Position numbers and translations under genes: made by a program. The notes below the pieces were generated by a model. The model had not been told where the DNA came from and did no database searches. It saw only the letters and a list, made by a program, of their open reading frames with translations. From a virus (Duplodnaviria > Caudoviricetes), in IMG/VR virus record IMGVR_UViG_3300011008_000012, positions 55,579 to 119,578 of that record: a stretch of 64,000 nucleotides of DNA; one strand, 5' to 3'. Within the stretch, counting starts at the first letter, position 1, and each line of letters opens with the position of its first letter. Shown one piece after another: positions 31,513 through 56,659 of this stretch.

Positions 31513-34500
31513 CTATATTTTTATGCTATACTTATTAAGAGAGCGAGAATCCACCATCTTACCAAGACTCATGGACGCGATAAGCTTTTCAAACTTCGAG
31601 TCGCTTTGCATCTGACGAAGCATGTCGTTATAGTCCTGAACATGGTCGATCTCGATTGTAACGTTAATGTCTCCAATACTGGAGCTGCGATTGGCGATGT
31701 TCGGGCGATGAATACCCAGAGGCATATCCCCACGCAGCGAACCGATGAGCCCACTGGATAAAGCGGACAACACAGATGCAGCCGAAGCACTACCAGAGAT
31801 AGCGCCCTTACCGCGCAAGAGATCCAACAGGGCGGAGAAGTTTTTCGTGTCCTCTGCATCAAGGATACCCTCAGGCTTATCGGGCGAACCGTCCACCCAG
31901 GCAAGGCCGGTGTAATCTGCCATACCACCTGTCTTGTAACCTTTGAACTTCTTCCGCATTTTGCTGTAAGAATAATTGGCCGCTTTAAGGCTGTTCTTGG
32001 TCGCATACGCGGCCACAGCTTTTGCGCCCTTACCGACGATAGCCTGGATACCATTATCCGTACCGAAAACCTCTTCCAGAAGTTTCTTCCTGGTAGCACC
32101 AGAACCCCAGCCTTGACCACCGTTCCAGATCGCATAGGCGACGCCGTATTTGATCTTTTCAGTCAACTTGGGCGTGGTCGTTTTGTTTGTCTTATCGGTC
32201 TGATTCTTATCTTTGGTTGTATCTTTGCTTGAAGTCGTGGAGGTGGAAGTGGTTGACGGAGCCGACTCGGTGGACGTCAGCTGCCCGATGGTAGCAGCCG
32301 CCTCGTTGTTGCTAGCCGTAACCATCTCCTGAACATTGGCACTAATATCGTTGATAGCCTTTTCTGTCGTGGTTTCCTCGCCTGAATTGTATTCGGTTAC
32401 TGCCAGCTTGTTAAGATTCTCTGCGGCAGTCTTCCAAATAGCGCCAAGGGTACCATCCGCTGTGGATATCTTGTAGCCATCTTCTTCAGCGGCCGACTTC
32501 AGCGTGTTCCAGATACCACCGGAATTCTCGTTGACGGCGGTGATCACGTCTCTGATCAGTGCGTCTGTTTCATCCAACCGTTTGGTGAGAGTCGCCTCAT
32601 ACTCCGTATACAGATCGTCAAGCAGCTGTTTTTGATCCTTGATATACTGCTCGTACTGCGTTTCCTGAAGTTTCTCCTGCGCCTCTGCAAGACTTGTATT
32701 GAGCTTTTGCAGACGAGCCCGGTTCTCCTCTGACGTATCACCGGAGTAAGCGGAGAGCTGCTTCTGGATTTGTGCTACGTTCTTCGTTTGCTCGGCAATC
32801 TTTTTCTGATAATCATATAGGGACTTGGCAGAATCTAGACTTTCCTTATAGGTGTCTATCAGGTCTTTCAGCGAGGAGAGTTCGAGATTGATACCCTCTT
32901 CCACAAGGGAGACGATGGCGTCTTTCTCTCCCTCAGCCGCGAGAATCGACTTCTGCTGTAAGTCGATCAGCTCTTCGCGGCGCTCAATCAGGTCCGTATT
33001 ATTCGGGTCTTTTGCTATCTGCTTTGTGAGTTTTGCAATCTGCGTGGCGTAATCGTCCGCCTGCCGCATATACACGTCGTAGTTTGTGCTGTGCAAGCCC
33101 ATAGTAGCCATACCAGCGTCTGTGAGCTGTCCATTTTCTGTAAACAGCTTGGAGTGGCTGAGCAGGTCAACCATGAAGCTAGCCTCAGAGGAAATGCGGG
33201 AGATACGCTCTTCCAGATAGTCGAAGTGGCTCCAGTCGTTCTCGCGAGCTTGCTTGTTGAACTCCGCCATATTTGTCTCGGCTTGCTGAATTGACTCGGC
33301 AACGGCATTGATATTCTGTTGCATAGCGTACCAAGCTTCAGAGTACTTCTTGATCTCACCGCTTGCCACCGCCGCGTCTCTCGCCGCCGTCAGCTGCTGG
33401 AACTCTTGGTTGAGCACGTTGAGATTCTTTTTCTCCTGCTTCGCCATCTTCGTATAGTATTTCGACGAGACGAGTCTGCCGCGTGCCTCCGCATTGTCGA
33501 TAGCGCCGTCAAGAGTGTTGGTCACATGCTCAAAAAGACTAAGACGATCCTCAAAATTGGTTTGAATATTATTGAAGTTATCCTGATACAATGAGCCAAG
33601 CTTCTCGTGCAGATCGACAGCGGCATCCGAGCACTCTTTGCTCTTCTCATACCACTGCTGATACTCCTGAATAAGTTCTGCGGTTGCATCATCGTACTCA
33701 TTGATATCAATTGTTCCTTCACGAACACGCTTCTTCAGGTCGTCTGATAGCCCAACAGACTCCGCCTGCTTCATATAACGAGCGGCGGCCTTCTCGTTCA
33801 GGGCGAGCATGTTGTTGACTTCGCCGATTTCTTTGTTTGTGTTCTTCAGTCGCGTAGAGAGAGTTTGGAAGGAACTACTCGCCTTTGTCGCCAGCTTTGA
33901 GATCTTCTTATCCAACCGATCGATAGCGATCTCGATCCAGTCAATGACCTCCTTGGCGTCGTCGGCCGCCTTGGTGCTGCTATTGCCGCCGCTGGTAGTG
34001 GCGGCCCCGCTGTTGCCGGAATAACTTGATGTGTAGCTGCCGAGATTGGCGCTGGAGGTCAAGGCGGGCAGAGTCGCCTGGCTTGTAGTGGGCGTTGATC
34101 TGCCGCCGGAGTCCGTCATCAGCGTATTGACGGTGCCAATCGGGTATGCTCGTCCATGTCCGGCATGACCCGTCCGGAGAAGACCTTCCGTTTGCGCGTG
34201 GTTGAAAATAATATCGCCCTTGTCAATGCCGATGAACTCAGCTCCATTATTACCTACTGTGCGCCATTCGCCGCTTGAAGCATCGACGTATAGTTCTCTG
34301 CCTTTTTCGCCTACCAGAACACGGCCGCCTTGTTTTGCCCCCATCGTGCCGGAGGCCATGGCGTTGCCATTGACTTGCGCTTCACGATGTACTGTGTTAA
34401 TATAGGTTGTGACCTGCCTGTTTTCGAGAGCATTTAAGCGGCTATTTAATACGTCGAGCTGCCCCATGCCGGAAACATTAACATCGACGTCTACTTTCTT

Positions 34501-36984
34501 CCCTTCGGTCTCTTCGATGTTTTGTTGCAGTGCGTCGGTGGCTTCGTTGGCCTCTTCTGTACTGACTTGCATATCAGTCTGGAGATCATCCGGAACAACT
34601 TCTGCCCAATTAATGTCAGCGACCTGACCATACTCCTTGATCATCGCCGCAAGCTCTTCACGGCTCATATGCATAACCTGGGCGAAGGCATCAAATGCGT
34701 CGTTGTCGGCTATCGACAGGGTCACCTCATCGCCAACACGGTCAATTTCTACGCCGACCTCAGAAAGCTCATCCTTGAGGGCTACGGCGCTATCGATCCA
34801 ATTCGATAACCCCTTTGTGCCATACCGGTCATCTGTCGCTCCGTCATACCATGCCTCACGTTCGGCGATCAGTGCCTCCAGCTGTCTGGCGGCACTCTCC
34901 AAGCCTTGTGAGAAGTCTATGAACTGCGTAAGCCCCATCTTCTCAGCGATATCCCACGTTTTGGCTTCGGAGCCGATAATCCCCTTACCGAGGAGTTCTT
35001 CCATTTCCTCAACTGCTTCGGCGTAGGTGATGTATTCGTTATTGGTATCGGCGCTCAGAGATTTCTTTAGCTCGTCGGCGGCCTCTTCTACGCCACGCAT
35101 AGAGTCGGCAAGCATACCATAGTGTTCTGCAAGCTCGTCAACCGGGTCGACGGGTAGGTTACGGGCGGCATTGATGACACTCTTCAACGCGGTCGTCTGC
35201 TCGTCGGTCAGGTCGGCTGTTTTAGCAAAATCTTCCAAAGACCTGATGAAGTCATCCGGCGATTCACGCAATAGCTTCTTTAAGCCTTCTTCAAGATTTC
35301 CGAAGCCTTCTGCTTCCGCGTCAATATATTCCAGAAGCTCAGGGAACTGCTGAACTAGCTCAAAGACACCCTCCGGCGTTATGTCGCCATTTCGCAGATC
35401 AACCAAAGCGGTAGTCAATGTATCGATGTCCGAGGTAAGGGTGCCAAGCCCTTCAAGTGTTTCTGAGAGCCTAAGGTTGTCATACTCATGCCGAATGGCT
35501 GCGACGCTTTCTGCGACGCCCATATTGGCAAAATCGAGGTTTGATGCTGCCTCTGCGACGAGATCGAGTTCGTCGTCGCCTATCTCTCTGATCCACGACA
35601 AAAGCTCGACTCCGAACTGCTCCTTTAAGGTCGCAAGCGCTTCAGACCCGTATCTGCCAGCTGTTTTGGCCGCGCCATTAGAACCGGCAAATATGTCCCA
35701 AATATCGTCCAGCGCGTCCGTGAGCTCTTCGGATAACCCAACGAATTTATTTAGTTCTTTTTCCGCAGGCTTGGCCTCGTCGGCAAGAGCCTTAAACCCG
35801 TCCGCGATTTGTCCTATAGTCCATCCGGCAAAACTAAAGCCGTTTCCAGAGAAAAGATCGTAAAGCTGTTTAACGTCTTCGGGAGACATATCGCTGACAA
35901 ACTCGTCCCATGCGGTGCGCCACTCGTCAAGCGCCTTTGCCGTCTGACGCTCGGTCATCCCCTCGGTATCGATACCGCCGAGGACGCTTTCCCACATCTG
36001 CCGTATAGCCTCATCGACGTTGATTATACCGATGTTGCTATTGATCGTATTGGCAACAGCTTCCGCAAAGTCCTCGCCGGTCTCCATGCCGGCTTCAACA
36101 GCGGCCAGCTTCAGAACACTTTCGGGAAATAGTTCAGATACATCTTCGGCGCTGATACCGTTGTTCCCGGTTGCCTTCTCTTTGAGCGCATCGATAAACG
36201 GCTGATTCATTGACCCAGATATGAAGTCGTCGACAGCCTTCTGGGCATCACGAGCAACCTCTTCTTCGGTCTTGGTGTAATCGATAATCTCTTTAATCTG
36301 GTCAAGCCAATCTGCGTTGGCCTCTGGAGCCAAAGAGAGAGTTGAGTAGATGCTGAGCAGCGTATCAAGATCCTCAGCAAGAAGCTCGCGATACTCATCG
36401 GCACCATCGTTGACCATCTCCTGCTCGAACTGGATCTTTTCCAACAGATTCATATTCCGCAGGACCGACGTTCCTTCGCCTCGTGCAAGGCTATAATCTA
36501 TCCCAACATCAACAACTTGAGTTTTTGACAATAGTTTTCGCGCGTCGTCTATTGCCTCTTGTTGTTCAAGAGCTGCTATCTGTCGTTTTAGCTCTAACTG
36601 TGATTCAAGGTCTGAGTTCGCCGTTTCAAGCCGACTAAGTTCCTCTTGCTCAACGAGTGTGAGTCCGCCCTTGGCATTCAACTCGTCGATTCGCGTCTGT
36701 GTGGTGTTTAACTCAGAATTTAGACTCTCTATATCAGACTGTGCACTGTCATAAGCAGCCCTGGATTTCTCCGCTGCTTTCTTGGCCTCATTAAAGGATA
36801 CTATAAGCGCATCAACAATTTTTACAACGCCTACTATCAGGGATGCTGCGGCGACAAAGCCAAATATTCCCGTCGATAGCGCACCCATTCCTTCTGCTGC
36901 GAGGTTAGCCGCTGTGGCAAGATCTTTAATGGATGTAACTCCAGTTGCAAGCCCACTTGTTGTAAATAGAGCGCTTAATGTTTG
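31513..36984 (-). CDS. tape measure protein, exon 2
   Basis: More than 1800 helical codons with LVGEKGRE...GAEF and YKTGG...AWVDG motifs. No SD at its TTG; in phase with exon 1. The 5' boundary is inferred. Confidence 0.85.
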   Translation of the reverse strand, partial: QTLSALFTTSGLATGVTSIKDLATAANLAAEGMGALSTGIFGFVAAASLIVGVVKIVDALIVSFNEAKKAAEKSRAAYDSAQSDIESLNSELNTTQTRIDELNAKGGLTLVEQEELSRLETANSDLESQLELKRQIAALEQQEAIDDARKLLSKTQVVDVGIDYSLARGEGTSVLRNMNLLEKIQFEQEMVNDGADEYRELLAEDLDTLLSIYSTLSLAPEANADWLDQIKEIIDYTKTEEEVARDAQKAVDDFISGSMNQPFIDALKEKATGNNGISAEDVSELFPESVLKLAAVEAGMETGEDFAEAVANTINSNIGIINVDEAIRQMWESVLGGIDTEGMTERQTAKALDEWRTAWDEFVSDMSPEDVKQLYDLFSGNGFSFAGWTIGQIADGFKALADEAKPAEKELNKFVGLSEELTDALDDIWDIFAGSNGAAKTAGRYGSEALATLKEQFGVELLSWIREIGDDELDLVAEAASNLDFANMGVAESVAAIRHEYDNLRLSETLEGLGTLTSDIDTLTTALVDLRNGDITPEGVFELVQQFPELLEYIDAEAEGFGNLEEGLKKLLRESPDDFIRSLEDFAKTADLTDEQTTALKSVINAARNLPVDPVDELAEHYGMLADSMRGVEEAADELKKSLSADTNNEYITYAEAVEEMEELLGKGIIGSEAKTWDIAEKMGLTQFIDFSQGLESAARQLEALIAEREAWYDGATDDRYGTKGLSNWIDSAVALKDELSEVGVEIDRVGDEVTLSIADNDAFDAFAQVMHMSREELAAMIKEYGQVADINWAEVVPDDLQTDMQVSTEEANEATDALQQNIEETEGKKVDVDVNVSGMGQLDVLNSRLNALENRQVTTYINTVHREAQVNGNAMASGTMGAKQGGRVLVGEKGRELYVDASSGEWRTVGNNGAEFIGIDKGDIIFNHAQTEGLLRTGHAGHGRAYPIGTVNTLMTDSGGRSTPTTSQATLPALTSSANLGSYTSSYSGNSGAATTSGGNSSTKAADDAKEVIDWIEIAIDRLDKKISKLATKASSSFQTLSTRLKNTNKEIGEVNNMLALNEKAAARYMKQAESVGLSDDLKKRVREGTIDINEYDDATAELIQEYQQWYEKSKECSDAAVDLHEKLGSLYQDNFNNIQTNFEDRLSLFEHVTNTLDGAIDNAEARGRLVSSKYYTKMAKQEKKNLNVLNQEFQQLTAARDAAVASGEIKKYSEAWYAMQQNINAVAESIQQAETNMAEFNKQARENDWSHFDYLEERISRISSEASFMVDLLSHSKLFTENGQLTDAGMATMGLHSTNYDVYMRQADDYATQIAKLTKQIAKDPNNTDLIERREELIDLQQKSILAAEGEKDAIVSLVEEGINLELSSLKDLIDTYKESLDSAKSLYDYQKKIAEQTKNVAQIQKQLSAYSGDTSEENRARLQKLNTSLAEAQEKLQETQYEQYIKDQKQLLDDLYTEYEATLTKRLDETDALIRDVITAVNENSGGIWNTLKSAAEEDGYKISTADGTLGAIWKTAAENLNKLAVTEYNSGEETTTEKAINDISANVQEMVTASNNEAAATIGQLTSTESAPSTTSTSTTSSKDTTKDKNQTDKTNKTTTPKLTEKIKYGVAYAIWNGGQGWGSGATRKKLLEEVFGTDNGIQAIVGKGAKAVAAYATKNSLKAANYSYSKMRKKFKGYKTGGMADYTGLAWVDGSPDKPEGILDAEDTKNFSALLDLLRGKGAISGSASAASVLSALSSGLIGSLRGDMPLGIHRPNIANRSSSIGDINVTIEIDHVQDYNDMLRQMQSDSKFEKLIASMSLGKMVDSRSLNKYSIKI

Positions 36985-37048
36985 CTTGAGTATCAAATAA
37001 TTTGTCGATATATATTTATGGATACATATCAATTTGGAGGGTGATTAT

Positions 37049-37615
37049 ATGGACCAAATTACAGACCAACTTCTTAAAATCAAGTCGCTTTGGGATAATG
37101 GCGTGTTATCTGAAAGTGAATTCAACGAGTTGAAACAAAGGATTATTTCAGAAGATTACCATTCGACAGACAATGAATCTGAAACAAAGGAAAAATTGTA
37201 TACAGTTAGCCTTGTAGCGTATACAAGGGAACAAAAAATTCCGACAATTCAAACAATCCGCGAACTAACCGGATTGGGATTGGCCGATGCAAAAGATCTG
37301 ATCGAAACCTTGCCGCACGTTATTCGCGATAATGTACCAATGTCTGAATGTATTGATATCAAAAACAGTTTTGCGACCAATAAAGCAGTGGTTGTTATAG
37401 AAGAATCCCGGGTCACGTCAGAATCACATCCAACGGGAGCATATTTCGGCAATACAGTTCTTAGTGAAAATCCATCTTGCCCCTACTGCCACTCACCCGA
37501 CGTAAAGAAAATCACCATGACTAAGAAGCTCGCTAAAGGTTGGGTGTTCGGTCTGGCCGCTGCGTCAACGCTCACGAAGGAATGGCATTGTAATAACTGT
37601 AAAAGCGATTTTTAA
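37049..37615 (+). CDS. SHOCT + ribosomal L7/L12 C-terminal-like + zinc-ribbon protein (cargo, antisense to the tape measure gene)
   Basis: LLKIKSLWDNGVLSESEFNELKQRII; KIPTIQTIRELTGLGLADAKDLIE; CPYC...CNNC. GGAGG SD. Confidence 0.8.
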   Translation: MDQITDQLLKIKSLWDNGVLSESEFNELKQRIISEDYHSTDNESETKEKLYTVSLVAYTREQKIPTIQTIRELTGLGLADAKDLIETLPHVIRDNVPMSECIDIKNSFATNKAVVVIEESRVTSESHPTGAYFGNTVLSENPSCPYCHSPDVKKITMTKKLAKGWVFGLAAASTLTKEWHCNNCKSDF

Positions 37616-37685
37616 TTCTTATTATAGGAGATACTACGAATCATGAATAATAAGAAATGTATTATTGTTACTTCGCGGACCGGTT

Positions 37686-37940
37686 CTAAAACTCTTTGTG
37701 GGCATTGTTCTCATTGTCAGGAATTCGTTGAGCTAACGGACATTGATAACATACCGAAAGAGCTCTTTGTATAAGTCCCGGGATATCGGCCTTTGGGTCG
37801 ATAGTATGGTCGTCGTCATAATAGAACCTAAACGCCTTGTGAACTCTATCGCAGTAAAATTGCATCTGAGTATACCCGTAATAATCGCCGCCTCCCCAAT
37901 GGGTGATTTCCGGCGTAGCGAATTTTTCATAACAATTCAT
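37686..37940 (-). CDS. hypothetical protein (cargo)
   Basis: 84 aa; GAAAGGA SD. Confidence 0.55.
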   Translation of the reverse strand: MNCYEKFATPEITHWGGGDYYGYTQMQFYCDRVHKAFRFYYDDDHTIDPKADIPGLIQRALSVCYQCPLAQRIPDNENNAHKEF

Positions 37941-38203
37941 AAAACCATCCTTTCATTCGTATACCCGCTCAGGTATTAAACGTGAATTATTGAACGTTAG
38001 TATACCGGAACGGGTATAATATGTATTATATTGTTTTTATCCCATCCATAAAACCAGTCAAGGGATTGTGACCGCATTGTTATTCAAACTCTATACTGCT
38101 TCTGAAATTGGACTTTCATGCCGGTCTCTCACCGGCGAGCATAGAACCGATACAGTCTAACAAAGAAAGCTATATCGGCAATTCCGACTGTCTCTCACAC
38201 TAT

Positions 38204-38232
38204 TTGACACATAATATGTATGGTGGTATTAT
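38204..38232 (+). promoter_or_regulatory. sigma70/sigmaA promoter for micropeptide A
   Basis: TTGACA-17 bp-TATTAT with an extended TG. Confidence 0.8.
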
Positions 38233-38312
38233 GACCTTGCGCATTTGACTCTCTGTCGGCTTAGTACGTTTGACAACGGGACGGAACCGCCGTCCAGAGA
38301 GGAGTGATTAGC

Positions 38313-38405
38313 GTGAAGAAGGTCATCAAGACCACGGTTAAGGTTGAAACGAAAGTGAAAACCAAAGCCGTCTCAAGGGCGCAAGTCCGAGTTCGACGCG
38401 GTTGA
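38313..38405 (+). CDS. basic micropeptide A (MKKVIKTTVKVETKVKTKAVSRAQVRVRRG)
   Basis: AGGAGTG SD and GTG start; own promoter upstream and terminator at 38415-38447. Confidence 0.7.
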   Translation: MKKVIKTTVKVETKVKTKAVSRAQVRVRRG

Positions 38406-38544
38406 TCCGTGCGCCGGGACGTGTATTGGCGCGTCCCGTTATTTTTTATGTGTAAATAGTGAACCTCCTTACAGTCTGTGAGCCTTCCCGTTCATCACAA
38501 ATTCCAACGTGATGCAGTCCCCAGACGAAAAAGATTTGTATGTC

Positions 38545-38573
38545 TTGAAATAAAACTACGTCTGCTGTATTAT
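38545..38573 (+). promoter_or_regulatory. sigma70/sigmaA promoter for micropeptide B
   Basis: TTGAAA-17 bp-TATTAT. Confidence 0.72.
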
Positions 38574-38651
38574 TATTAACAGGCGCAACGAAATCCGGCG
38601 AAGAGAGATGTTGACGGCTTGACTCTCTAAGTCAGGAAAGTAGGTGATATA

Positions 38652-38729
38652 ATGGCGCAGATCAAAGTGAAAACCGAGATCAAGGTGAAAATCCGCACCA
38701 CGGTGCGGGTTGCCACCCGCTGCCGTTGA
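38652..38729 (+). CDS. basic micropeptide B (MAQIKVKTEIKVKIRTTVRVATRCR)
   Basis: AGGTGA SD and ATG start; terminator GGGAGTCAG/CTGGCTCCC + T-rich tract at 38740-38774. Confidence 0.7.
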   Translation: MAQIKVKTEIKVKIRTTVRVATRCR

Positions 38730-39010
38730 TCGGCGCTTAGGGAGTCAGTCACCGCTGGCTCCCGTCTTTATTTCATATACAAAATTTTTCGATAGGGGAG
38801 AGGGGCTTGGTTGCGTGATTGCCCATTGTATACGACCAGTAGCGTTATTGTTTAGCCTAGGCCAACCATCCACTTCTTTCCGCCTTTCGGCTCCTCTCGC
38901 GCTTGTCCGTTAGGGCTACGCTGTGGCAAGATGGTATTAGGGGTTCCCCGCAGTTTGAAGGTTTACGCAACGATGGGTTCACACCCATCGTGGGCAAATT
39001 CATTTGAACT

Positions 39011-40975
39011 ACCAAAATTGTGAATCAAAACGCCGATACCCAACCCGGCAATTGCTGTACCGAGTGGACCGAGCGCGGATGTAATATGTCCAATAGCTCC
39101 GGCAATGGGTTCTAGGAGTTCCAATACGTTGGTGCCAATGTCAACGATGCTATTTACAAAGCCGGAATCGATGGCTGTCCGGCTCAGCTCCTGGAGCGCG
39201 GCCTTGAATGTGTTGATATGCGCCGTCATGCTGTCCAGGAAGACGTCATACGCGCCCTCAAGTGCGCCGGCGCTGTCGGCCATAGCTTCCATGGCTCCGG
39301 TCGCTTCACCGAACTGCCCCATGAGGCTGCTGAACACGTCTTGCTGTCGCGTACCGGCCAAAGCAGTGGTAATGGCGGCTTTAACATCTGTGCTGAGTGT
39401 GCTCCACTTGTCCGCCAGATCACTTAAAACCTCGAACGGATTACGAAGTGCACCAGTTGCCTCCTGTAACTGAACTCCTCCGCTTGTAAGCGCGTCGATC
39501 AGTTCTTGGTACTTCGCCTCGTTCCATACCTCGCCAGTTTCTTCAATCTCTGTTTTGACATTTCTGAGTCTGGCAATGATCGTTCGCAGACCGGTGGAAG
39601 ATTTGGAAATATTCTGGACCGTTGTATTTGCGGCTGTCAGCATGGCTATCGACTGATCGATAGTCATTCCGGATTGAGCCATCATCGAGGAGGCATTGTT
39701 CATGCCCTCCGCAATCTGGGATACTGAAATGGGGAAGTTGTTACCAACTTTCACCATTTTATCCATGATAGACTCAATGTCTTCAACGCCCTTCCCATAA
39801 GCCTTGACGATAGCGGTTACAGCGTCAGATGCAGCCGACGGATCAATGTCGCCGACGTTTTGCAGCATAGCAGTAAATTTTGCCAGGTCATGGGATTCTT
39901 CCAGACTATAGCCAAGTCTTGAGTAAACCGTCGCCATGTTGACCAGATCGGTTATGGAGGCGCTCATATCCTTTGCCGTCTGAGCCATCGTGCTGCCAAA
40001 GCGGCTCATCGTCTCATTGTCCGCACTAGTTACGATCTGAAGCTGTGTATATGCGTCGTTCAGCTCGATGGCCGTACTGACCATCTCTTTCATTTGCGCG
40101 ATCGTAGATTGTATGATACGGAACGTGCTGAACGTCATGGCGACATATTGCGTCAGGCCAGCCTTCAGATTTCCAAAGAAAGCGGCAAGGCTCGATCCGG
40201 CGTTGTTTACGTTACCAGATATGTTGGTCACCTCGCTCCGTAGATGGGCGAGTTTAGCGCGGGCCTCATCCGCGGGCATTCCTTTAAGGTCTCCGGCAAG
40301 CCGTTCAAGGGCGGCTATGAGATTATTAACTTGCGCAACAGTTGACGGATCGGCGGCGCCTTTGCCGAGAGCAATCTTGTCTTGCAGTCCATGCAGCGTA
40401 TTTAACATGGTGCTGACCTGATTCAGCGCCTGATAGTACTCCGTCGTTCCCTCGGCGAGCATCCTAAACTCGTTCTTGGAACCGGCCTGTGTGAAGGTCA
40501 TCTTCCCGTTCGCCATGTTGTTCTTTAGTGAATCGAACTGATCCCTAAAATCCTTCATAGCGAGGTTCCCGCTTTCGATCTCGCTAAGGAGACCGGAGAA
40601 CGCGGTCTTCGCCCGGCCGAGTCCGGAGGTGTAGGCGTTTACAGAATCGCCCGCAAGGCCCTTCATCCTCTGCATCTCAAGTTCTACGTTGACAAGCTGA
40701 TTCATCACCTGTGTCGCTTCTTTGATACCGGCAGTTTGCGTTTTTATGTTTACGCTGCCGCCAGACACAGTGGCCTTCTTAACGGCGTCAAGGCTCTCAA
40801 TGGTGGACTTGATGTCATTGCGCAGCTGTTTGATCATTTTATCAGCGCCTTCAACGTCCAGCTCGACTTTGACTTTGAACGGCTTCAAACCGCCGATCAT
40901 AGTTTTGAGTTGACCTTCTATTGCGGCTTTACTTTCCTGATGGACACCAAACAGAAGTTCTACATCACCGGCCAT
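39011..40975 (-). CDS. tape measure protein, exon 1 (TP901-type core domain)
   Basis: TMP core motifs (Y.RLGYS, D....VGNNF, G..LRTI.ARL, LAG.RQ). Unspliced, the ORF reads 15 codons into the intron and stops at 38963. Confidence 0.9.
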
Positions 40976-55354: not shown

Positions 55355-56374
55355 TTATATATCTCCAAATCCCTTTTTCTCCGGTACGCTTATATCGCCG
55401 TCCTTAAAGAACATGGCGATCTTCTCGTCCTTCGGATTATCGTCATAGATTTTCAGCATCTCAGAGCTAGACCATCCGATAATATCAACCACAACGCTAT
55501 CCGGGATGCCAGCCCTGACGAGAAACGACACGTTTGCATGTCTGAGGCTATGCCAGTAGAAATCCCTTCCGGTCATGCGGCTGAACGTATACGTCCAACT
55601 ATTCAGAGTCGTCGTACTGATTTGTTCCTCCGGGTTAGACGGAGATACAAAAAGCCACTCGCTTGTAATGCCATGTTCCTCGCGATACTTCATCCAAAGG
55701 TCAAGATATGGCTGGAACTTCTTTGCAAGCGTGTAGCATTCCAGCATTTTGTTGCCCTTTGTCTTGATTGGCTTGCTCTTATACAGAGCGCCGTCGCAAA
55801 CAAGATGATCTTCTGTAAAATCATCTACACGGAAACGACACAGCTCAGCTTTCCGCCTTCCTCCGTATATCGCCAGAGCGACACAGCACGCCTTCTCATA
55901 CTCTTCCTTTTCAACGAGCTGAGCCAGAAGATCCTCCAGCTCCTCATCCTTCCAGACGGTCTTCTCACGGACCATATTCAAGGCGGGGTTCTCAATCTTC
56001 CGAACGATAGAACGGAACCCGGCATATTCGTCATCTTCGTCAAGAACATTCTCAACAAAATTTGACAAGCTGGATATGGCTGCCTTCAACCGCCTCACAC
56101 GAGCCGGACTGTTTTCGTTCTCGTTAATCAACCAGTTCTGATACGCAACAATGTCGCGCTTGGTTATATTCACGAAATCCTTATTCTTGGCGTGCAATAA
56201 CACCCAAACAAAGAATATTTTGAGATCAGAATCATATCCAACGAGAGTTCCCTCGCTCCTGCTCAAAGACTTCATGTAATCCAGGAACTCGTCCTTCAGC
56301 GCGATGTTATTCGGATTCACCTGCGCCAAGAGCTCTGGCGAGGTGATAGAATTCATCTTTGTCTTTCTTGGCAC
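55355..56374 (-). CDS. second tyrosine recombinase (no arm-binding domain)
   Basis: GRRKAEL, HSLRH, GW and IY. GGAGG SD with GTG start at 56374; the ORF-track start overlaps a tRNA. Confidence 0.85.
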   Translation of the reverse strand: MPRKTKMNSITSPELLAQVNPNNIALKDEFLDYMKSLSRSEGTLVGYDSDLKIFFVWVLLHAKNKDFVNITKRDIVAYQNWLINENENSPARVRRLKAAISSLSNFVENVLDEDDEYAGFRSIVRKIENPALNMVREKTVWKDEELEDLLAQLVEKEEYEKACCVALAIYGGRRKAELCRFRVDDFTEDHLVCDGALYKSKPIKTKGNKMLECYTLAKKFQPYLDLWMKYREEHGITSEWLFVSPSNPEEQISTTTLNSWTYTFSRMTGRDFYWHSLRHANVSFLVRAGIPDSVVVDIIGWSSSEMLKIYDDNPKDEKIAMFFKDGDISVPEKKGFGDI

Positions 56375-56402: not shown

Positions 56403-56477
56403 TGGTGGGTTCTACCGGAATTGAACCAGTGTCCTCCGGGCTTCAACCGGATGCTTTACCAATTAAGCTAAGAGCCC
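56403..56477 (-). tRNA. tRNA-Phe(GAA)
   Basis: Cloverleaf GGGCTCT...TCCGG-TTGAAGC-CCGGA...TTCAATT...ACCA. Confidence 0.9.
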
Positions 56478-56573: not shown

Positions 56574-56659
56574 TGGTCGGCGACGTTGGATTCGAACCAA
56601 CTGAGCCTATGGCACCTGATTTACAGTCAGGACCGCTTCCTAATACGGTATACTCGCCG
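56574..56659 (-). tRNA. tRNA-Tyr(GTA) with an atypical acceptor stem
   Basis: CCTGA-CTGTAAA-TCAGG, long variable arm, GTTGG-TTCGAAT-CCAAC, ACCA end. Confidence 0.8.

Follow-up and report, generated by a model that had tools for sequence, protein, structure and literature searches.

Cargo-carrying group I intron in the tape-measure gene of a 120-kb phage

Phage group I introns are usually seen as selfish carriers of one homing endonuclease. Here we describe a 2-kb group I (self-splicing-type) intron that interrupts the tail tape-measure gene of a 120-kb phage (Duplodnaviria; Caudoviricetes), in which no homing nuclease domain was found but which holds four small passenger genes in three of its loops, whereas related phages carry the same intron with those loops empty or differently filled. 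We analyzed a window of 64,000 nt, positions 55,579 to 119,578 of IMG/VR record IMGVR_UViG_3300011008_000012. A first-pass annotation of the sequence alone had proposed an endonuclease-free group I intron at 36985-39010, with three inserts each closed by a long-range inverted repeat, and had read the ribozyme as a neutral landing pad for accessory genes. The observation is confirmed and the reading is supported, with two corrections that concern the 3' splice site and one closing helix, although splicing, expression of the cargo from its own promoters and the neutrality of the intron remain inferred.

The tape-measure gene lies on the minus strand and is split at 39011. Exon 1 (40975-39011) has 655 codons with a PF10145 core and ends ..HNFG, with U39011 as the last exon base. 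The downstream frame is open from 37032 to 31513, and exon 2 (36993-31513, about 1,826 codons plus stop) has no start codon with a ribosome-binding site near its 5' end. Both halves match the same intact 2,000-3,000-aa tape-measure proteins in order, and the conceptually spliced protein aligns through the junction in single alignments with few gaps. An in-frame TAA (38965-38963) between P2 and P3 would stop ribosomes that read into the intron, the read-through tail SSNEFAHDGCEPIVA being intron-encoded, and the orthologue P0135 ends with the same kind of tail. No close DNA relatives were found by megablast against the phage collection or by a protein-pattern scan of IMG/VR, and tblastn with the exon 2 N-terminus found nothing in the phage collection.

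The gap of 2,017 nt (39010-36994, minus strand) holds a group I ribozyme of about 468 nt, for which P1 to P9 were located by homology to jumbo-phage introns that match the Rfam group I model RF00028 and to four orthologous introns. In the window itself, Rfam at the gathering threshold found only two tRNAs. RF00028 reached 12.4 bits for model positions 60-138 only, against a gathering score of 50 bits, and a 301-nt sub-window gave no group I hit. The model cannot span inserts of 271, 256 and 1,022 nt. Insert-free orthologues score significantly, although still below the threshold, with 28.3 bits over the full model for contig L014 (E = 0.0011) and 35.8 bits over P3 to P3' for contig L018 (E = 1.6e-7). 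Positions 38897-38804 are 76-78% identical to introns in split RNA-polymerase genes of phages EL, SaP7 and Proteus phage 7 (blastn E = 7e-7), which score 51-66 bits on RF00028. The P2-P5abc fold shared with these introns has 20 of 37 covarying pairs, and the present sequence keeps 31 of 37 under an automatic alignment.

All 101 proposed base pairs, in 18 helices, form in the window. Across four orthologues 386 of 404 cells pair, with 21 compensatory and 12 one-sided changes. In P1 (39013-38993), exon GGU (39013-39011) plus intron AG pairs with UUGCC (38997-38993), and U39011 forms the wobble pair at the splice site with G38995. P1 has only three exon base pairs. Exon position -2 and its guide-sequence partner covary, being G-C here and in L018 and A-U in L014 and G001. 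Positions 38990-38806 hold P2, the P3 5' strand (38963-38957), J3/4, P4, P5 and a P5abc-like extension with a GAAA hairpin and an A-rich bulge. Positions 38521-38462 hold the P6a and P6 3' strands, the P6b hairpin, J6/7, the P7 5' strand (38476-38471) and the P3 3' strand (38468-38462). This stretch contains the R element GCUCACAGACUG, is 97% identical to L014 over 64 nt and is aligned by RF00028 in L014 and L018. The P8 3' base, J8/7 and the P7 3' strand (38191-38186) follow at 38201-38184 with the S element GAGAGACAGUC. P7 keeps the G-C (G38476-C38186) then A-U pairs of the guanosine-binding site and differs from the group I consensus by a compensatory change, from GACUA/UAGUC to GACUG/CAGUC. 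P3, P4 and P7 are invariant among the four orthologues and hence carry no covariation. The 3' domain (38179-38055) comprises the local P9 hairpin, a closing stem, the P9.1 hairpin and the P9.3 hairpin, with 10 compensatory pairs in these four helices. An alternative long-range P9 (38181-38166 with 37017-37002) is refuted by at least 3 compensatory pairs in the local P9 hairpin.

Each of the three inserts is closed by a helix made from its own flanks. The P6 closure has 29 bp between 38800-38765 and 38556-38517 (-27.7 kcal/mol, z = -6.6, 0 of 1000 shuffles as good), and the P8 closure has 16 bp between 38462-38445 and 38215-38197 (z = -5.5, 0 of 1000). The 3' loop is closed by the 8-bp long-range helix UUUAUGGA (38052-38045) with UCCAUAAA (37022-37015), which loops out 1,022 nt of cargo and brings the 3' splice site 21 nt downstream of the helix. 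In L018 the helix is UUUCUGGA with UCCAGAAA, a compensatory A-U to C-G change. However, a second 3' closing helix proposed in the first-pass annotation (38080-38091 with 36988-37000) is not conserved in L018 or G001 and overlaps the likelier 3' splice site. Ranking all window pairs with RNAduplex was uninformative, because random GC-rich duplexes dominate, and a blastn self-comparison missed the AU-rich closures. By homology, the 3' splice site is more likely G36994, followed by A36993, than G36985, followed by C36984 (the first-pass choice, giving 2,026 nt). Both are in frame and P10 is weak for either. The context UAUUUG followed by A is conserved in L018 and G001, and the spacing from the helix to the terminal G is 21, 20 and 19 nt in the window, L018 and G001, respectively.

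The comparative test suggested in the first-pass annotation came out as predicted. The same intron sits at the same tape-measure codon (after ..NF[G/D]) in four other contigs, L014, L015, L018 and G001, with a core conserved at 85-97% identity while the cargo differs. The P6 and P8 loops are empty in L014, L015 and L018, only the P8 cassette is present in G001, and both are present in the window, with boundaries exact to the nucleotide. The contents of the 3' loop differ in every genome. A group I core followed by an ORF and then exon 2 recurs at a second site in contig L021, with RF00028 at 51.4 bits.

The P6a and P8 loops hold two paralogous antisense units, each with a promoter-like site, a ribosome-binding site, a micro-ORF for a strongly basic peptide alternating Lys/Arg/Thr with Val/Ile, and a terminator. 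The P6a-loop insertion (38522-38792, plus strand, 271 nt), bounded by inverted repeats about 26-30 nt long, has a promoter-like TTGAAA-17-TATTAT (38545-38573), a micro-ORF at 38652-38729 (25 aa, MAQIKVKTEIKVKIRTTVRVATRCR) and a terminator at 38740-38763 followed by a T-tract. The P8-loop insertion (38202-38457, plus strand, 256 nt) has a promoter-like TTGACA-17-TATTAT with an upstream TG (38204-38232), a leader of about 75 nt, a micro-ORF at 38313-38405 (30 aa, GTG start) and a terminator at 38415-38438 followed by a T-tract. The promoter-like sites match 11 of 12 and 10 of 12 consensus positions. Between the window and G001, the P8 cassette keeps its promoter-like site, leader (about 93% identity), start, stop and reading frame despite a 3-nt indel and many synonymous or conservative changes, and the terminator stem shows compensatory changes. 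No other copy of the cassettes was found in this genome, and pattern scans of IMG/VR and GTDB genomes found none apart from G001. The cassettes were found only in this intron lineage, so their mobility is unproven.

The 3' loop holds a sense-strand 84-aa ORF (37940-37686) and an antisense 188-aa ORF (37049-37615, plus strand). The former belongs to a small protein family with four invariant cysteines (homologue P0124, E = 7e-15) and has no Pfam or PHROG hit. Its repeat-rich long hits (P0125, P0126, P0133) look like compositional matches, and an AlphaFold model of the family was of too low confidence (pLDDT 62.5) to search folds. The latter has SHOCT, a ribosomal L7/L12 C-terminal domain (50.7 bits, E = 2.3e-13) and a C-terminal zinc ribbon but no full-length homologue, and its ribosome-binding site and a weak promoter-like site lie at the intron's 3' end. 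A 43-aa antisense ORF (37643-37774) has a ribosome-binding site but no supported homologue and is doubtful. No HNH, GIY-YIG, LAGLIDADG or transposase domain was found with Pfam and PHROGs in any ORF of 30 aa or more scanned in the gap, and the flanking ORFs scanned also lack an endonuclease domain. The only HNH_3 hit in the genome lies about 38 kb away, and no GIY-YIG hit was found.

We consider it highly likely that 39010-36994 is a group I intron interrupting the tape-measure gene after the codon for Gly655 and that its inserts are accessory genes rather than a homing endonuclease. In the inferred mechanism, the late transcript folds into the ribozyme (P1 to P9.3) with the inserts held out of the way by their closing helices, the TAA before P3 keeps ribosomes out of the core, and guanosine-initiated splicing joins ..HNFG to ILKQTLS.., giving one tape-measure protein of about 2,480 aa. 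Because the whole intron would be removed from the mRNA, DNA inserted into tolerated loops would not damage the essential gene, and the intron would serve as a site where moron-like genes accumulate and turn over.

It is possible, but unlikely, that the P6 and P8 inserts act as RNA, either as peripheral ribozyme extensions or as short antisense RNAs that pair with the intron loops of any tape-measure pre-mRNA and control its splicing or stability, for example to silence the late gene in lysogeny. The leader is much better conserved between the window and G001 (about 93%) than the ORF (about 55-60%), antisense transcripts would be perfectly complementary to the loops, and the genome encodes three tyrosine recombinases, so a lysogenic state is possible. 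However, the ORF keeps its start, stop, frame, length and alternating basic/beta-branched pattern across about 8 synonymous and several conservative changes, each copy has a ribosome-binding site, the two paralogues share in-frame motifs (KVKT, TTV, stop), and the two leaders do not fold better than shuffled sequence (z = -1.5 and -0.2). Equally speculative is that the cassettes are a new kind of miniature gene cassette that colonises terminal hairpin loops of a ribozyme, duplicates from one loop (P8) to another (P6) and rebuilds the interrupted helix through its inverted repeats, with basic peptides or antisense RNAs that would aid or brake splicing, so that cargo and ribozyme would be functionally coupled.

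It is also doubtful that the antisense zinc-ribbon gene is the intron's own, so far unrecognised, maintenance or mobility factor. An antisense ORF ending in the same C-terminal zinc-ribbon module lies next to the 3' splice site in the window, L018, G001 and a further contig, L016, although their intron sequences have diverged and their other cargo differs, and this recurrence fits poorly with purely random, neutral cargo. On the other hand, no nuclease motif was found, the N-terminal parts differ completely (SHOCT plus L12 domain here, a second zinc ribbon in L016, a zinc ribbon plus membrane segments in L018), and the module occurs in an unrelated secreted-type protein, P0122. Such small zinc-ribbon and membrane proteins look like moron products. 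Least likely is a dead or irrelevant ribozyme with the tape measure made as two separate proteins, or a proximal 3' splice site after G38117 giving a truncated 665-aa product, even though the 670-aa ORF ends in a stop, G38117 follows P9.1 as the terminal G does in compact relatives, and AAA downstream of it could form a 3-bp P10. Exon 2 has no start codon with a ribosome-binding site here, in L018 or in G001, homologues are single proteins, and 21 compensatory pairs show that the fold is maintained. G38117 is an A in G001, is not aligned to a G in L014 or L018, and lies inside a covarying three-way junction.

Group I introns in tape-measure genes are already known from Bacillus cereus-group prophages (TMP-IVS1, IVS2 and IVS3; Tourasse and Kolsto 2008, PMC2504315). 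Several of these lack a complete homing endonuclease gene, an in-frame stop lies early in the intron, and the same site is used by diverged introns. However, they are compact IA1/IA2 introns with, at most, endonuclease remnants, and no independent antisense genes or multi-loop cargo were described, whereas the present intron has a P5abc-like extension, has no P7.1/P7.2, and holds 1.5 kb of non-nuclease genes in three loops. The closest sequence relatives, in split virion or non-virion RNA-polymerase genes of jumbo phages (Pseudomonas phage EL gp184-186, Salmonella SaP7/SPN3US-like phages, Proteus phage 7), share the P2, P4, P5 and P5abc-like domain and the R and S elements, but have P7.1/P7.2-like hairpins and are associated with HNH endonuclease genes on the sense strand. 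IStrons such as CdISt1 likewise have a group I ribozyme whose 3' part carries non-endonuclease genes and which makes insertion into a coding gene harmless, but they carry TnpA/TnpB-type transposase genes, and no transposase or TnpB domain was detected here in the 3' loop ORFs. The P6 and P8 cassettes and the 188-aa gene have the anatomy of phage morons, with their own promoter-like site and ORF, plus an intrinsic terminator for the two micro-cassettes, and are oriented independently of the late operon, although their independent expression is inferred. Morons, however, sit between genes, whereas these sit inside an essential gene, nested in ribozyme loops, and their flanks double as RNA helices. 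No description of cargo-carrying tape-measure introns was found in the literature searched, and the loop-nested micro-cassettes are what is specific here.

Annotation pipelines see only a split tape measure and miss both the intron, which is below Rfam's threshold, and the micro-ORFs. The empty, half-filled and filled versions of one intron offer a natural map of insertion-tolerant positions in a ribozyme (the P6a loop, the P8 loop and the distal P9 loop), and yield a family of predicted, very basic 25-30-aa peptides and a predicted L7/L12-domain protein. They suggest that the peripheral loops accept complete, independently signalled genes, including genes on the opposite strand, without destroying an essential virion gene, which would give phages a way to store and exchange accessory genes inside conserved structural genes.

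The tail genes of this 119,578-bp IMG/VR virus record, which has direct terminal repeats, lie on the minus strand of the window. A 670-aa ORF (40975-38963) carries the TP901-type tape-measure core (PF10145, E = 1.6e-27) and, after a gap of about 1.9 kb, a frame of 1,839 codons is open from 37032 to 31513. A search for longer relatives of the first piece returned hundreds of intact tape-measure proteins of 2,000-3,000 aa, and both pieces match these proteins in the same order. The conceptually joined protein aligns across the junction in single alignments, for example over 170 residues with 6 gaps against the intact homologue P0003. The 15 residues that follow Gly655 in the first ORF, and the residues before the proposed exon 2 start, have no counterpart in the intact homologues aligned across the junction, and exon 2 has no start codon with a ribosome-binding site. 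Elsewhere in the window, two tRNA genes lie on the minus strand (56406-56477 and 56579-56657), the second being weak (31.2 bits) with an 11-nt insertion in the variable region. The complete record (G000:C1) encodes three tyrosine-recombinase (Phage_integrase) genes (32542-33081, 64517-65104 and 111014-111526), which is compatible with a temperate lifestyle or with dimer resolution.

The gap contains a group I ribozyme, although Rfam finds nothing there at its gathering score and only a 12.4-bit fragment at relaxed settings. A sensitive blastn search matched window 38897-38804 (76-78% identity, E down to 7e-7) to unannotated DNA in jumbo phages EL, SaP7, Proteus phage 7 and others, where the match lies inside split RNA-polymerase genes, next to an HNH gene in EL, and belongs to RF00028 hits of 51-66 bits. 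Aligned with eight such introns, the sequence shares P2, the P3 5' strand, J3/4, P4, P5 and a P5abc-like extension with a GAAA hairpin and an A-rich bulge. The consensus fold has 20 of 37 pairs with compensatory changes, and this sequence keeps 31 of 37 even under an automatic alignment. Downstream we located the R element GCUCACAGACUG, the P3 3' strand GGAGGUU, P8 and the S element GAGAGACAGUC. P7 keeps the G-C and A-U pairs of the guanosine pocket, and relative to the consensus it differs by a compensatory A-U to G-C change. An exact 14-nt direct repeat (minus strand ATCTTGCCACAGCG) occurs once in intron helix P5a (38919-38932) and once 71 nt into exon 2 (36910-36923), with a roughly estimated chance expectation of about 0.01 in 2.2 kb, but no role was found for it. 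About 0.7-1.1 kb upstream of the window start (G000:C1:54436-54871), an HNH_3 endonuclease ORF (31.4 bits) lies about 300 nt upstream of a weak match to the 3' end of RF00028 (16.1 bits), which may be a second, endonuclease-bearing group I intron in the same phage.

Orthologous introns provide the decisive comparison. Among shorter tape-measure fragments, P0135 ends with the same kind of intron-encoded read-through tail as this window and P0136 ends at the same ..NFG codon. The P0135 contigs L014 and L015, an IMG/VR contig (L017/L020, hereafter G001) and a JGI contig (L018) all carry this intron at the same codon. Window 39019-38793 and 38521-38458 are 85-97% identical to adjacent stretches of L014, in which the intervening 271 nt (38792-38522) are replaced by a single base in a small hairpin loop. 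In the same way, 256 nt (38457-38202) replace a 6-nt P8 loop. L018 is also empty at both places, whereas G001 is empty in P6 but has a homologous P8 cassette (79% identity over 482 nt). Without the inserts, RF00028 aligns its whole model to L014 (28.3 bits, E = 0.0011) and aligns P3 through P3' to L018 (35.8 bits, E = 1.6e-7), although both scores are still below the curated threshold. A diverged intron at the same ..KNFG| codon in contig L016 (12700-14490) shares P4/P5abc-like motifs but gives no Rfam hit at E below 1 and no blastn match to this intron.

To evaluate whether the fold is under selection, we defined 18 helices (101 pairs) in window coordinates and counted them on an alignment of the four orthologues with the inserts removed. 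All 101 pair in this sequence, which is by construction given that the structure was read from it. Across the four sequences 386 of 404 cells pair, with 21 pairs showing changes on both sides and 12 showing changes on one side, and we conclude that the fold is under selection. The covariation includes P1, in which exon position -2 and its guide-sequence partner are G-C here and in L018, and A-U in L014 and G001. This fixes the 5' splice site after U39011. P2, P5a, P5c, P6b, P8, the local P9 hairpin, a closing stem, P9.1 and P9.3 also covary, whereas P3, P4, P6 and P7 are invariant and hence carry no covariation information.

At the 3' end, a long-range helix (38052-38045 with 37022-37015) closes a 1,022-nt loop, and in L018 the same helix carries a compensatory A-U to C-G change. 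In L018 and G001 the downstream ORF frame leaves essentially one usable in-frame G, in the context UUG|AAA, 20 and 19 nt after that helix, respectively. The homologous site here is UAUUUG|AUA, that is G36994|A36993, 21 nt after the helix, and it gives the junction HNFG|ILKQTLS. The first-pass annotation had placed the 3' splice site at G36985, which is 9 nt further on and is also in frame. Protein alignments cannot decide between the two, but by homology G36994 is the likelier site. A second closing helix proposed in that annotation (38080-38091 with 36988-37000) is not conserved and would span the likelier splice site. A proximal G at 38117 is not conserved and lies in a covarying junction.

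Each of the P6 and P8 loop inserts is bounded by inverted repeats that extend the interrupted helix, 29 bp for P6 (z = -6.6) and 16 bp for P8 (z = -5.5), with no shuffle out of 1,000 as good. On the plus strand each insert has a promoter-like site matching 10-11 of 12 consensus positions, with the -35 box in one repeat arm, and an intrinsic terminator with its T-tract running into the other arm. Between promoter and terminator lie a leader of about 70 nt, a ribosome-binding site and a micro-ORF, at 38652-38729 (25 aa) in P6 and at 38313-38405 (30 aa) in P8. The peptides are very basic and alternate Lys/Arg/Thr with Val/Ile, and the two copies share in-frame motifs. In the P8 cassettes of this window and G001, the promoter and leader are about 93% identical and the ORF only about 55-60%. 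Nevertheless, the ORF keeps its start, stop and frame across a 3-nt indel, with many synonymous or conservative differences, and the terminator stem has compensatory changes. This pattern favours a translated peptide but does not prove it, and the leaders are not unusually stable.

The 3' loop holds a sense 84-aa ORF from a small family with four invariant cysteines. The closest homologue (50% identity, L013:438-677) lies beside a Tn916-type excisionase and a tyrosine integrase, and the family therefore travels on other mobile elements too. The 3' loop also holds an antisense 188-aa ORF with SHOCT, a ribosomal L7/L12 C-terminal domain (50.7 bits) and a C-terminal zinc ribbon. That zinc-ribbon module recurs in antisense ORFs at the same place in L016, L018 and G001, fused to unrelated N-terminal parts, the L016 ORF being a 125-aa double zinc-ribbon ORF. 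In place of the 84-aa gene, L016 and G001 carry a sense gene of about 210 aa (214 aa in L016), which matches the proteasome-subunit family only weakly, below Pfam's threshold. A 43-aa plus-strand ORF with a CxxCxxC motif and a good ribosome-binding site (37643-37774) follows the 188-aa gene and overlaps the 3' end of the 84-aa gene in antisense, but no supported homologue was found and it is unclear whether it is real. No ORF scanned in the gap shows a nuclease or transposase domain.

Group I introns in tape-measure genes, some without endonuclease genes, have been described in Bacillus cereus-group prophages (PMC2504315). The layout of core, then ORF, then exon 2 also occurs at a second tape-measure site in a related SPbeta-like contig (L021:5497-7187), where an RF00028 hit of 51.4 bits after ..LAGK is followed by a sense 339-aa ORF with a Myb-like domain and then exon 2. 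Many other short tape-measure N-terminal fragments (P0141-P0168) end in shared non-homologous tails (..GRTEMCA, ..NWNWANHLEEAA, ..GIKSFA), which suggests further intron sites. In the literature searched we did not find a description of an intron serving as a multi-bay store of non-nuclease genes that carry their own promoter-like signals and lie largely antisense. Specific to this window are the pair of micro-cassettes nested in P6 and P8, and the natural series of empty, half-filled and filled introns. Although splicing and the expression and function of the cargo are inferred, this is a real group I intron with a fold maintained by selection, which is almost certainly spliced and is used as a carrier for turnover-prone accessory genes.
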